A DNA stretch of 64,000 nucleotides from Escherichia coli (GTDB lineage Bacteria; Pseudomonadota; Gammaproteobacteria; Enterobacterales; Enterobacteriaceae). Position 1 is the stretch's first letter. Each line of letters begins with the position of its first letter. The notes beneath the pieces are model-generated. The model did not search any database. It saw only the letters and a list, made by a program, of their open reading frames with translations, and was not told the DNA's origin. Shown here piece after piece: positions 344 through 53,658 of this stretch. Both the position numbers and the translations under genes were made by a program. Where the stretch lies: assembly GCF_011045215.1 (NCBI RefSeq), contig NZ_CP049201.1; one strand, 5' to 3'.

Positions 344-439
344 GATTTTCATGCCAGTGGACTCATGACCCTCTGCCTGAGTAGTTCAAATCCGGCTCGA
401 CTGCAAAATGGCATCTGAATCGATCGCAGTTTGGCATTC

Positions 440-1929
440 CATATCCTTACCCATAAATCCGAGTGATGTTATTCTGTTGATAAATTAACCATAATTTAGA
501 GGAACTATGGAAAACTGGGTTATTAAGGAGCTGGAATCTCTGAATGTTGGTGATATCAGGCTCGAAAAGCGAATAAAGCACGTTCTCAGTGTGCTTAGCC
601 GTTCACCAAAGGAAAGTATTCCCGTATCCTGCCGTACCTGGAGTGAGACAAAAGCTGCTTATCGTTGCTTTTCCAGTGATAAAATTTCAGCCGATAAAAT
701 CATGGCTCCCCATAAGAAAAATATCATCGAAAGGACTAAACAGTTTAAACGGGCTCTGGTTTTACAGGATACGACTGAACTAAATTATTCTGGTCAAAAA
801 AAGAAACAGGGCGTCGGTCCCAGACGACATGAAAATGAGCGAGATTTGTTTATTCACCCTCAATTGGTTATAAGTGATTCAGGTATTTGCTTAGGGGTTT
901 ATGATGATTATCAATGGTTCAGAAAAGAACTCAAAACTCAGAAACAAAGTCGTAAAGAAATAACTAATGATTCACTTCACAGGAAACATATCAGTGAGAA
1001 AGAAACAGGACGGTGGATAGAAGGATATAAAAAAGCAACAGAACTGGCTAGGTCCTGTCCTGATACCCAGATAATTTCTGTTTCAGACCGTGAAGGTGAT
1101 ATTTACGACCTCTTTGAGAGTGCAGAAAATGAAAGTGGGATAAAGGCTGACTGGCTCGTAAGAATGAAGAGCATTAACCGGGCTATACTGAATTCATCAG
1201 GAAAAAGAGACTCATTACTCCTGAATGAAAAAATGATGCAGATTTTGCCACAGCAGATAATTGAGTTTACCCTTCCGGAAGGACGAGGACAACCTTCCCG
1301 CAAAGTCCAGCAGGAGCTACGCTTAGCAAGGTTGACGCTACATCCACCCACCGGTCGAAGAGGAAAGTTACGTTGTTCTCCGGTAACGGTAACTGTATTA
1401 CTTGCAAAGGAAATAAATGCTCCAGAAAGTGTCCAGCCATTAGTATGGTGGCTAATGAGTAGTGTACCTCCAGAAAAGCTGACGGAACCCGCACAGCTTA
1501 TTCAATGGTATTTATTACGCTGGCAGATTGAAGTTTTCTTTAAGGTATTAAAAAGCGGATGTCAGGTTGAGAAATTACAACTTGAGACATTTGAACGCAC
1601 AAGGAACTGTCTGGCCTTATACCTTATAATCTCATGGAGAATACTTTATCTTAGCTCATTGTATAAAATGGTTCCGGAGGAACCCTGTGATTTAATTTTC
1701 GAAAAGAAAGAATATGAGTATCTCTGGATATTGGTAGAGAATACGCCTCCACCTGAAAACATACCGAATATAAGAACGGCGGTTTTAATGCTTGCAAGAT
1801 TAGGAGGATATCTGGCAAGAAAAAATGATTCGCCTCCAGGCCCTAAGACTATATGGTCAGGATTAACACAATTAATGCTGTCAATTAATGCCATAGAAAT
1901 AGCCCAGAAAACTTGTGGGTAAGGGTATG
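440..1929 (+). mobile_element. IS4-family (IS50-like) insertion sequence, copy A
   Basis: 14-bp imperfect terminal inverted repeats CATA(T/C)CCTTACCCA at 440..453 and 1916..1929, flanked by a 9-bp direct repeat TTGGCATTC (431..439 and 1930..1938); single transposase ORF fills the element. Confidence 0.75.
507..1922 (+). CDS. IS4-family transposase (DDE, IS50/Tn5-like)
   Basis: 471-aa ORF with LQDTTELNY, DREGDIYDLF, YLLRWQIEVFFKVLKSGCQ and C-terminal ARLGGY segments typical of IS4/IS50 transposases; identical copy on the minus strand at 51335..52750. Confidence 0.85.
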   Translation: MENWVIKELESLNVGDIRLEKRIKHVLSVLSRSPKESIPVSCRTWSETKAAYRCFSSDKISADKIMAPHKKNIIERTKQFKRALVLQDTTELNYSGQKKKQGVGPRRHENERDLFIHPQLVISDSGICLGVYDDYQWFRKELKTQKQSRKEITNDSLHRKHISEKETGRWIEGYKKATELARSCPDTQIISVSDREGDIYDLFESAENESGIKADWLVRMKSINRAILNSSGKRDSLLLNEKMMQILPQQIIEFTLPEGRGQPSRKVQQELRLARLTLHPPTGRRGKLRCSPVTVTVLLAKEINAPESVQPLVWWLMSSVPPEKLTEPAQLIQWYLLRWQIEVFFKVLKSGCQVEKLQLETFERTRNCLALYLIISWRILYLSSLYKMVPEEPCDLIFEKKEYEYLWILVENTPPPENIPNIRTAVLMLARLGGYLARKNDSPPGPKTIWSGLTQLMLSINAIEIAQKTCG

Positions 1930-2021
1930 TTGGCATTCGAATCGATCATGATTTGGCATCCATCTCCGATCACAGTTTGGCATCACAATCGATCACGATT
2001 TGGCACGCTTCCGATCATTGA

Positions 2022-2345
2022 TTGGCATCCTGCCAGTCACTCCGGGAATTAACTCTTTTCGCCACAGTCTTCATTGCCGTGTTTAAACCAATGGAGACGG
2101 CAATGTCCAGAAAGAGAAAATCCAGGAGCACTATGGAAACCTGTTTTAAGATCCTTCAGCTCAAGTTCGACCAGAAGCTGACTAACCGTTGTATCGGGCT
2201 GACATTACACATCAGCGCCTCAACCGTTTTTGAGGTTCTTGCACGCTTCAAAGCCTCTTCTCTGTCATGGCCATTACCTGCTGATATATCCCATGACACG
2301 CTGGAGAAACTCATTTTTCCGCCCAAAGACACCTTTGCATCGTAA
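2022..2345 (+). pseudogene. istA: IS21 istA 5-prime fragment (about 107 codons)
   Basis: Translation identical to the N-terminus of the full IstA at 49589..51235 up to ...DTLEKLI, then diverges and stops. Confidence 0.8.
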
Positions 2346-51235: not shown

Positions 51236-51327
51236 TCAATGATCGGAAGCGTGCCAAATCGTGATCGATTGTGATGCCAAACTGTGATCGGAGATGGATG
51301 CCAAATCATGATCGATTCGAATGCCAA

Positions 51328-52817
51328 CATACCCTTACCCACAAGTTTTCTGGGCTATTTCTATGGCATTAATTGACAGCATTAATTGTGTTAATCCTGA
51401 CCATATAGTCTTAGGGCCTGGAGGCGAATCATTTTTTCTTGCCAGATATCCTCCTAATCTTGCAAGCATTAAAACCGCCGTTCTTATATTCGGTATGTTT
51501 TCAGGTGGAGGCGTATTCTCTACCAATATCCAGAGATACTCATATTCTTTCTTTTCGAAAATTAAATCACAGGGTTCCTCCGGAACCATTTTATACAATG
51601 AGCTAAGATAAAGTATTCTCCATGAGATTATAAGGTATAAGGCCAGACAGTTCCTTGTGCGTTCAAATGTCTCAAGTTGTAATTTCTCAACCTGACATCC
51701 GCTTTTTAATACCTTAAAGAAAACTTCAATCTGCCAGCGTAATAAATACCATTGAATAAGCTGTGCGGGTTCCGTCAGCTTTTCTGGAGGTACACTACTC
51801 ATTAGCCACCATACTAATGGCTGGACACTTTCTGGAGCATTTATTTCCTTTGCAAGTAATACAGTTACCGTTACCGGAGAACAACGTAACTTTCCTCTTC
51901 GACCGGTGGGTGGATGTAGCGTCAACCTTGCTAAGCGTAGCTCCTGCTGGACTTTGCGGGAAGGTTGTCCTCGTCCTTCCGGAAGGGTAAACTCAATTAT
52001 CTGCTGTGGCAAAATCTGCATCATTTTTTCATTCAGGAGTAATGAGTCTCTTTTTCCTGATGAATTCAGTATAGCCCGGTTAATGCTCTTCATTCTTACG
52101 AGCCAGTCAGCCTTTATCCCACTTTCATTTTCTGCACTCTCAAAGAGGTCGTAAATATCACCTTCACGGTCTGAAACAGAAATTATCTGGGTATCAGGAC
52201 AGGACCTAGCCAGTTCTGTTGCTTTTTTATATCCTTCTATCCACCGTCCTGTTTCTTTCTCACTGATATGTTTCCTGTGAAGTGAATCATTAGTTATTTC
52301 TTTACGACTTTGTTTCTGAGTTTTGAGTTCTTTTCTGAACCATTGATAATCATCATAAACCCCTAAGCAAATACCTGAATCACTTATAACCAATTGAGGG
52401 TGAATAAACAAATCTCGCTCATTTTCATGTCGTCTGGGACCGACGCCCTGTTTCTTTTTTTGACCAGAATAATTTAGTTCAGTCGTATCCTGTAAAACCA
52501 GAGCCCGTTTAAACTGTTTAGTCCTTTCGATGATATTTTTCTTATGGGGAGCCATGATTTTATCGGCTGAAATTTTATCACTGGAAAAGCAACGATAAGC
52601 AGCTTTTGTCTCACTCCAGGTACGGCAGGATACGGGAATACTTTCCTTTGGTGAACGGCTAAGCACACTGAGAACGTGCTTTATTCGCTTTTCGAGCCTG
52701 ATATCACCAACATTCAGAGATTCCAGCTCCTTAATAACCCAGTTTTCCATAGTTCCTCTAAATTATGGTTAATTTATCAACAGAATAACATCACTCGGAT
52801 TTATGGGTAAGGATATG
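51328..52817 (-). mobile_element. IS4-family (IS50-like) insertion sequence, copy B
   Basis: Inverted duplicate of 440..1929 with the same 14-bp terminal repeats and the same 9-bp flanking repeat (GAATGCCAA on this strand at 51319..51327 and 52818..52826). Confidence 0.75.
51335..52750 (-). CDS. IS4-family transposase (identical to 507..1922)
   Basis: Identical 471-aa translation to the copy at 507..1922. Confidence 0.85.
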   Translation of the reverse strand: MENWVIKELESLNVGDIRLEKRIKHVLSVLSRSPKESIPVSCRTWSETKAAYRCFSSDKISADKIMAPHKKNIIERTKQFKRALVLQDTTELNYSGQKKKQGVGPRRHENERDLFIHPQLVISDSGICLGVYDDYQWFRKELKTQKQSRKEITNDSLHRKHISEKETGRWIEGYKKATELARSCPDTQIISVSDREGDIYDLFESAENESGIKADWLVRMKSINRAILNSSGKRDSLLLNEKMMQILPQQIIEFTLPEGRGQPSRKVQQELRLARLTLHPPTGRRGKLRCSPVTVTVLLAKEINAPESVQPLVWWLMSSVPPEKLTEPAQLIQWYLLRWQIEVFFKVLKSGCQVEKLQLETFERTRNCLALYLIISWRILYLSSLYKMVPEEPCDLIFEKKEYEYLWILVENTPPPENIPNIRTAVLMLARLGGYLARKNDSPPGPKTIWSGLTQLMLSINAIEIAQKTCG

Positions 52818-53658
52818 GAATGCCAAACCGTGATCGATTCAGATGCCATTTTGCAGTTATACACTATTGAGTATTATATTGTTATGAAAATATCTGTACT
52901 TATGGAATATTTAATTCTGATGATGGGGCTCTGGTTTGTTGTATGGTTAATTACGGACTGGTTACCTCATATCTGACGGAAAGTGGTATCAGTGTGTATT
53001 CGCATTGACCGGACATCGACATATAACGAATTACGTTCCGGACAAAACTCTCCTGCAGGAAAGGGTAACATTGTATTTTAAACATATTATTCAACCAGTC
53101 ATAAGCATAAACCGACCGCCGTATGTAGCCATTAAGCCAGTATTGGTAACGAAGATACCCACCTTTTCAAAAAGGAAGTGGATAAAAGATAACGAAAATG
53201 CGAAGAGTTGATTAATACATTGAAACAAAATTCATTAATGATGAACTTGGAGAAAAGCTCCATCAAAATACGACACGACCTGTCGTAATTTGTGTTAGCC
53301 AGGAAAGAATATCTACTACTCACTAAAATGATTTAGTGCTGAAAATATTTACAAGCCAATAAATTGACTGGTATTACGGAGTAACGCCCAGGCTATGTTA
53401 ACGAACCCGCTGTTTTATTGGCTCAAAAAACATATCCCAGAGATGTTCAGCCATACCCTCGTTAGTGAGCAAGGTATCCCCTTAGTAGCCAGGGCTGAAG
53501 ATGCCCATTGATGGGCGAAAACCAAGGATCTGGCCGTTAGAACAGTTATGTCGTTAAACACATCACCACCATATGCCATCCGGTTCACTTCGTCGGCCAA
53601 ATTAGTGTGATATTCTTTCCAGAAATGCTGTTGTATCCACGACATAAGGCGATGATTG

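Follow-up and report, generated by a model that had tools for sequence, protein, structure and literature searches.

That dispersed copies of insertion sequences (ISs) serve as recombination substrates is a textbook phenomenon. We analyzed a 64,000-nucleotide stretch of Escherichia coli DNA (assembly GCF_011045215.1, contig NZ_CP049201.1), referred to here as the window, in which two inverted copies of a 1.94-kb sequence, each holding the left end of an IS21-family element and an IS4-family element, face each other across an island encoding a type VI secretion system (T6SS). This inverted repeat is very probably a by-product of IS activity, left by two copies of an IS21::IS4 composite of which the left one was later truncated, and not a dedicated device. 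Every component belongs to a known IS family, and the arrangement is a new instance of a known phenomenon, ordinary IS debris, which represents a credible passive substrate for recombination and not a switch.

The closest described cases are the repeat-mediated rearrangements of E. coli, which are established knowledge from studies of prophage-bounded inversions in O157:H7 strains (PMC8743559) and of the positioning of long repeats (PMC9297083). As in these cases, long and nearly identical inverted copies of mobile elements are present on one chromosome and allow RecA-type inversion. However, the homologies in the O157 cases are prophage-sized and the inversions comprise hundreds of kilobases, often around the terminus, whereas the arms described here measure 1.9 kb and are located 48.6 kb apart within one replichore. 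Moreover, the O157 inversions are documented, whereas the arrangement in the window is known in one orientation.

Programmed inversion systems such as fimS, Hin/Gin/Cin, and the shufflons likewise consist of a segment between inverted repeats for which two orientations are possible. In these systems, a dedicated recombinase of the serine or tyrosine type acts on repeats of tens of base pairs, and the junction is spanned by a promoter or by the end of a coding region, whereas the window contains 1.9-kb IS copies and no gene is changed at the junctions. No invertase was found in the annotation by the Prokaryotic Genome Annotation Pipeline (PGAP) of the collinear region in E. coli C5, and a single orientation was seen in the window and 10 related genomes. 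With 1.9-kb IS arms, no annotated invertase, and one orientation, the locus does not have the properties of an inverton.

Composite transposons of the Tn5/Tn10 type resemble the locus in that cargo genes lie between two inverted IS copies, one of which codes for functional transposition proteins, but here one arm is a stump, a duplication flanking the whole unit is missing, and the structure arose in situ. Considered on its own, the right copy agrees with ISSso4-like IS21 elements in the presence of istA and istB, TG...CA termini, subterminal TTGGCAT-type repeats, and a 7-bp target duplication, and homologues are named as ISSso4 family by PGAP. Unlike an ordinary ISSso4-like element, the right copy has remained able to transpose with a 1,490-bp IS4 element located 38 bp inward of its left terminus, and the left copy is reduced to a 1,940-bp stump.

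Two copies of an IS21::IS4 composite

A search of the entire window for repeats yielded a single inverted pair, 400-2342 and 50915-52857, with a length of 1,943 nt and a spacer of 48,572 nt. The outermost two bases at each end are a chance extension beyond IS21, and the IS21-bounded arms comprise 1,940 bp each. The arms and the elements to which they belong are as follows.

402-2341, + strand: left arm, the first 1,940 bp of the IS21::IS4 composite (IS21 left end, IS4, istA promoter region, and 70 istA codons)
50916-52855, - strand: right arm, the part of the complete IS21::IS4 copy that matches the left arm
440-1929, + strand: IS4-family element of 1,490 bp inside the IS21 left end (transposase 507-1922, 471 amino acids)
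48718-52855, - strand: complete ISSso4-like IS21::IS4 composite of 4,138 bp (istB 49572-48817, istA 51124-49589, IS4 51328-52817)
48711-48717 and 52856-52862: 7-bp target duplication GTTATAC flanking the right IS21::IS4 copy

A base-by-base comparison revealed 99.7% identity between the arms, a value given as 100% by the repeat search due to rounding. The six mismatches are located at positions 426, 428, 2317, 2318, 2335, and 2339 of the left arm, corresponding to 52831, 52829, 50940, 50939, 50922, and 50918 in the right arm. All of them lie within 27 bp of an arm edge, leaving a perfect core of 1,888 bp (429-2316). Chance cannot produce a repeat of this length, and both arms hold the same series of an IS21 left terminus, an IS4-family element, and the 5′ end of istA. 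An earlier sequence-only reading had placed the repeat at 402-2340 and 50917-52855, which is within 1 nt of the arms given above, and its assignment of the elements (IS21, IS4, the istA 5′ end, and an IS66-like end at the break) was confirmed by profile scores and comparison of the termini. Two of its statements have to be amended. The inverted duplicate it described is real, but the arms are 99.7% identical, with differences at the edges only, and the 107 istA codons it reported were counted from a mechanical TTG start of the open reading frame (ORF) at position 2022, whereas 70 codons result from the ATG start of the PGAP homologue at position 2133.

The right copy has all features of an IS21-family element. 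Its IS21 ends, TGCAAAATGGC... and ...GGAATACGCA, are of the TG...CA type and contain the subterminal repeats (T)TTGGCAT and TTTGCAT, and its target duplication is of the 4- to 8-bp class. Both transposition proteins are full length without internal stops: IstA (NF033546, 287 bits with a cut-off of 160) is identical at 507 of 511 positions and IstB (NF038214, 256 bits with a cut-off of 200) at 244 of 251 positions to the proteins annotated by PGAP as ISSso4 family in strain 357900. The corresponding empty site, ...CTGTAGTTATACACTATTGAG... with a single GTTATAC, was present in all 10 related E. coli assemblies (C5 and nine others), which were found via an exact look-up of the C5 variant of a helix-turn-helix (HTH) protein; the variant encoded in the window itself matched only two metagenome contigs shorter than 1 kb. 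In all 10 relatives, the DNA on both sides of the empty site, that is, the island and the hsdR flank, was located on the same strand as in the window. It follows from the empty site and the shared strand that the right copy entered by simple insertion in this strain alone and that the orientation of the island in the window is the ancestral, un-inverted one.

The IS4 element is characterized by a single DDE transposase (NF033590, 347 bits with a cut-off of 160), the termini CATATCCTTACCC and CATACCCTTACCC with short 13-bp terminal repeats agreeing at 12 of 13 positions, and a duplication of the 9-bp class, which places both copies (440-1929 and 51328-52817) in the IS4 family. The duplications, TTGGCATTC, are located at 431-439 and 1930-1938 and are the same in both arms, and the element starts 38 bp inside the IS21 left terminus TGCAAAATGGC at position 402. 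The sequence-only reading had also held that the IS4 insertion predates the duplication, and this view is now supported from outside the window: at least 25 other complete E. coli genomes, including VR50, NCTC86, and sequence type 131 (ST131) strains, contain the segment 402-2341 without interruption at 97 to 99% identity and with IS4 in the same place and orientation, and the composite has its own target duplications at three loci, GTCAGGG in strain 357900, ATGCTG in strain 52F4, and GTTATAC in the window. The IS4-bearing IS21 is an old lineage and continues to move as a unit.

The IS4 site TTGGCATTC belongs to the TTGGCAT(T/C)C motifs that recur in the IS21 left end. The IS4 element of strain 52F4, to which the window element is 100% identical, shares the left junction, has the opposite orientation, and abuts the next TTGGCAT(T/C)C-type motif, with 47 bp missing (L002 6472-8010). 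The use of the same left junction in the opposite orientation suggests that IS4 prefers these IS21 repeats as a target.

An origin of the arms by segmental inverted duplication was considered and rejected. On its outer side, each arm stops precisely at the IS21 terminus, beyond which the DNA is unrelated, and the right copy is accompanied by a target duplication and by empty sites in the relatives. The arms are therefore two transposition products, one of which was later truncated.

The truncated left copy and its IS nest

The left arm is embedded in a series of other IS fragments, which are listed below.

1-77, + strand: 3′ end of an ibrB-like gene, which borders the IS nest on the left
78-321, + strand: IS66-A fragment with the left terminal repeat and the 5′ part of tnpA, starting with GTAATGTTCCGGGG
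322-401, - strand: end of an ISL3-family (ISEc38-like) element, nested in IS66-A and cut by the IS21 terminus
2342-5725, + strand: IS66-B without tnpA and tnpB (tnpC 3863-5365), containing a nested IS110-family element at about 2509-3950 (transposase 2658-3677)

The first 226 nt of the window are 99.1% identical to plasmid A of E. coli C5, the nearest relative, where this IS66 end likewise comes after the last part of an annotated IbrB-like gene. The IS66-A fragment matches the segment 2342-2508 of IS66-B except for a 1-nt indel and is 98.8% identical to an IS66 of strain 52F4 up to position 321. An assignment of all sequence left of the arm to IS66 was rejected, because 322-401 represents an ISL3/ISEc38-type end. 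The segment 314-401 is 94 to 96% identical to an annotated ISEc38-family end in strain 357900 and C5 plasmid A, where the ISL3 sequence continues from ...GGCTCGAC directly into CATACATCTGG; this continuation is missing from the window.

The left copy of IS21 is a remnant consisting of the left end and 70 istA codons, with homology ending at position 2341. Its istA ORF (2022-2345) reads into IS66-B and ends there. As proposed by the sequence-only reading, homology stops exactly where a second IS66-like end begins, since GTAATGTTCCGGGG starts at position 2342.

IS66-B retains tnpC (NF033517, 439 bits) and the terminal repeats (GTAATGTTCCGGGGACCTCATCTT and GTAATATTCCGGCGAACTCATATT), and its region also gave a profile score of 331 bits for NF033542, but tnpA and tnpB are deleted and a target duplication is missing. 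The flanking 8-mers, TTTGCATC and TTTCGATT, differ, which shows the lack of an 8-bp duplication. The right junction of IS66-B with the yfdX side is common to C5, and because it is shared, IS66-B is at an ancestral position. The missing 8-bp duplication and the ancestral right junction together indicate that the left flank was exchanged at the exact IS66 terminus, and IS66-B is a defective derivative with an exchanged left flank. For the same two reasons, a simple insertion of IS66-B into istA as the sole event was rejected. The 3.4-kb IS66::IS110 deletion derivative is also present in strain mip270_22, at another locus.

Neither of the two left-arm junctions was found in 5,426 complete E. coli genomes, which were searched with 200-bp probes for each junction and with the whole region 60-2620, and a 40-mer covering the junction between istA and IS66-B had no match among the GTDB representative genomes. 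The arrangement is therefore unique among the 5,426 complete genomes. The nearest homologue changes at the IS nest: for window positions 1-401 it is C5 plasmid A (214 kb; L007 7928-8153 and 10662-10741), and from 5726 onward it is the C5 chromosome. This switch from plasmid to chromosome would fit a history of cointegration, without proving one.

From these data we propose the following course of events. An ISSso4-like IS21 would long ago have gained an IS4-family element in its left end and from then on have transposed as one 4.1-kb unit. An intact copy would have landed at 48718-52855, between the T6SS island and a type I restriction-modification (R-M) locus, and a second copy in the ISL3 end nested in the IS66 fragment beside ibrB, a context as found on C5 plasmid A. 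The part of the left copy beyond istA codon 70 would then have been lost by a rearrangement ending at the exact left terminus of IS66-B, possibly by an IS66-mediated adjacent deletion, by cointegration, or by insertion followed by recombination between two IS66 copies.

The IS110-family ("RNA-guided") element nested in IS66 (window 2509-3950) has further copies at L002 12425-13841 and L003 6171-7600. Its 5′ noncoding segment (window 2526-2577) differs from that of the 52F4 copy, the remainder being 97% identical, and if the element uses a bridge RNA, the guide region would fall in this segment. In the relative GCA_014105865.1 (L029 11027-15547), the IS66::IS110 element beside yfdX is internally rearranged, with the segment corresponding to 2578-4393 abutting the 5726 junction and 4359-5727 in the opposite orientation. 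Because of this rearrangement, IS-associated inversions evidently do occur at this island border in the species.

Recombination between the arms and competing explanations

The mismatches between the arms are confined to the edges, two of them to the first 27 bp and four to the last 25 bp. The chance that all six differences fall within these 52 of 1,940 positions is about 4e-10, or about 5e-7 if they are counted as four mutational events. The alleles at the inner edge of the left arm are of the VR50 type and those at the outer edge of the right arm are of the 52F4 type, whereas in the core IS21 sequence of 378 bp the arms differ at no site, compared to 9 to 17 sites at which other IS21 lineages differ from the arms. 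Because an identical core is located between edges with alleles of different IS21 lineages, these results suggest, as the simplest biological interpretation, that two originally distinct copies have already exchanged sequence by gene conversion, with the last ~25 bp of homology left unconverted. If this is true, the arms have already interacted by homologous recombination. For IS specialists, two aspects are of interest: the edge-confined mismatches resemble gene conversion between dispersed IS copies, and the IS21 lineage is mobile despite an IS4 element between its terminal repeat and its internal repeats.

The sequence-only reading had regarded the inverted arms as a substrate for RecA, and in this respect it holds: identity is uninterrupted over 1,888 bp, a length far in excess of the minimal processing length, and both arms are located in one 64-kb window, on a single replicon provided that the assembly is correct. 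RecA-mediated inversion of the 48-kb segment by ordinary recombination is plausible. A RecA-dependent crossover in the core between the facing copies would invert 2342-50915. This would bring the intact istAB genes to the left side, behind the stump of ISL3, and leave hsdR facing IS66-B and the truncated stump; relative to replication, IS66-B, the T6SS, and the defense genes would be flipped. As the istA 5′ end is the same in both arms, no gene would be split or fused, and since no gene or promoter is rewired, the flip is not expected to have a regulatory role. The + strand holds nearly all of the interior genes, the GC skew is positive, and the cumulative GC skew climbs steadily across both junctions without a reversal at 2.3 kb or 50.9 kb. 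Because of the strand of the interior genes and the rising GC skew, a flip is predicted to put the T6SS head-on to replication. The comparison with related genomes suggested by the sequence-only reading gave the same orientation in all 10, but these relatives lack the arms and thus represent the ancestral state, so that they are silent on flipping in this strain.

An actively flipping segment, with both orientations of 2342-50915 mixed in the population via RecA and possible effects on the expression of T6SS and defense genes, is conceivable but rather unlikely. In E. coli O157:H7, cultures grown from a single colony give rise to repeat-mediated inversions (PMC8743559), the perfect core shared by the inverted arms would permit the same here, and the mosaic edges suggest that the arms have recombined at least nonreciprocally. 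However, the second orientation is absent from the present data, the assembly being in the ancestral orientation, and no switch logic is visible, as the common istA 5′ end means that no gene or promoter is fused or disrupted. In addition, inversion within a replichore makes co-oriented genes head-on, which here would concern almost all of the interior genes, and inverted repeats placed in this way are under-represented in fast-growing bacteria (PMC9297083). Flipping, if it takes place, would add another case of IS-mediated structural heterogeneity, in which a whole T6SS is turned head-on to replication, an effect accessible to measurement.

We consider it improbable that the arrangement is an assembly artifact in which the two left-arm junctions stem from different IS21::IS4 copies (e.g., a plasmid copy and a chromosomal copy) that were joined via the core, or in which the repeat was collapsed or copied. 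The change from 99% identity with C5 plasmid A (window 1-226) to the C5 chromosome (5726 onward) would be accounted for, and an identical core with differing edges is the pattern of a collapsed repeat node in a hybrid assembly. On the other hand, with several IS copies along its length, a 64-kb contig implies the use of long reads, which easily span 1.9 kb, and both junctions are located at exact IS termini, which is biologically sensible, and not at breaks within the repeat. Even in the case of an artifact, the repeat copies would exist in the genome. Less probable still is a composite transposon, in which the outward IS21 left termini at 402 and 52855 and the IstA and IstB proteins of the right copy would move a 52.5-kb unit with the T6SS and three defense-like genes between replicons. 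Both outer ends are intact IS21 left termini, istA and istB are intact, and the IS4-bearing left end is transposition proficient, as evident from complete composites with target duplications at three loci; a related T6SS is present on a Citrobacter plasmid (93.6% identity), and the plasmid-like left flank may be a trace of such traffic. However, the flanks of 402 and 52855, GGCTCGAC and GTTATACA, do not form a duplication, the target duplication of the right copy and its empty sites show that the structure was assembled in place and never moved as a unit, the use of two left ends by IstA is putative, and the 52-kb unit was found in no other genome and at no other site among the 5,426 complete E. 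coli genomes.

Several points also weigh against the preferred explanation, an IS-activity by-product with a later truncation of the left copy and a RecA-competent core. The truncation step is deduced from the anatomy of the junction alone, the missing half of IS21 and the remainder of ISL3 being absent from the window. The sequence left of 2342 is plasmid-like and that to the right is chromosome-like, which would be compatible with a cointegrate or, with lower probability, with a chimeric join. The identical core could have resulted from repeat collapse or consensus homogenization in a hybrid assembly, and not from gene conversion. Finally, no sister genome with the arms was present among the 5,426 complete genomes, so that a comparison with respect to inversion was precluded. 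The main value of the locus is for annotation and assembly, as ISs of five types are nested in the region and structural claims on this T6SS island merit checking with long reads.

Genes between and beside the arms

The segment 5726-48710 is collinear with the C5 chromosome at 97 to 99% identity, and the annotation of the genes between the arms was carried over from the PGAP annotation of C5.

5726-48710, + strand: inter-arm segment with a yfdX/porin/ProQ module, the T6SS, defense-like genes, and the PerC to HTH genes
tssB at 11609 to tssE at 37795: T6SS, comprising tssBCKL, an OmpA-family gene, hcp, clpV, vgrG, a class-3 lipase effector, PAAR, and tssMAFGJE
38509-45662: defense-like genes, identified by PADLOC as PD-Lambda-1, NERD+UvrD (C3a187, E = 2.5e-141), and Old
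46182-48086: PerC to HTH genes
53707-59894, + strand: type I R-M genes outside the arms (hsdR 53707-57072, hsdM 57136-58770, hsdS 58767-59894)

The T6SS is complete, with tssA to tssM, hcp, vgrG, clpV, and PAAR, and the ORFs in the window match the lengths of those in C5; VgrG was recognized with 331 bits by TIGR01646. The claim of the sequence-only reading that the arms bracket the whole T6SS and defense region is correct for the T6SS and the genes for the PD-Lambda-1-like protein, the NERD+UvrD helicase, and the OLD-family ATPase/nuclease, which are all located inside, but the type I R-M genes and a helicase-like gene (1,093 amino acids) are located outside, to the right of the arms.

Two of the defense genes near the repeat are disrupted. 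Owing to the loss of 1 bp near 38861, which shifts the frame, the PD-Lambda-1-like GIY-YIG gene (38509-39752) is present as two ORFs, compared to an intact gene for 414 amino acids in C5, and hsdR has a premature stop at codon 637 (55615-55617), without indels relative to the intact C5 gene (1,121 amino acids), while hsdM and hsdS are open. Both genes are pseudogenes in this strain, and the restriction subunit HsdR is probably inactive.

Divergence of the T6SS from C5 is restricted to the vgrG-effector-immunity cassette (20700-28200). Its vgrG is 79% identical, its effector is a different class-3 lipase allele, and the GC content decreases to 35 to 37%. This divergence would be consistent with an exchange of the effector cassette. 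A 171-kb plasmid of Citrobacter sp. TSA-1 carries a cluster (NZ_CP053574.1, 4481-17798) with 93.6% identity to the T6SS core (10100-23300), which indicates that this type of T6SS also travels on plasmids.

Rfam and tRNA scans of the window found nothing, that is, no tRNA-linked island boundary and no known RNA. Well outside the T6SS operon, between NERD+UvrD and OLD, an orphan TssA-like protein is encoded at 42158-43522; it is intact (454 amino acids) and contains ImpA_N and VasL domains. The module consisting of NERD/UvrD, a small ORF, the TssA-like gene, and OLD is kept in all 10 relatives, and in C5 it has a tandem duplicate with signs of decay and an IS110 element. In a look-up with yfdX, most relatives had a hemagglutinin/contact-dependent inhibition (CDI) module, and not a T6SS, beside the yfdX-ProQ block. 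A direct repeat of 50 nt (92% identity) links positions 3-52 and 46078-46127, both of which are 3′ fragments of ibrB-like genes, and the fragment at 46078-46127 points to a decayed second ibrAB-type module in the island, upstream of PerC.

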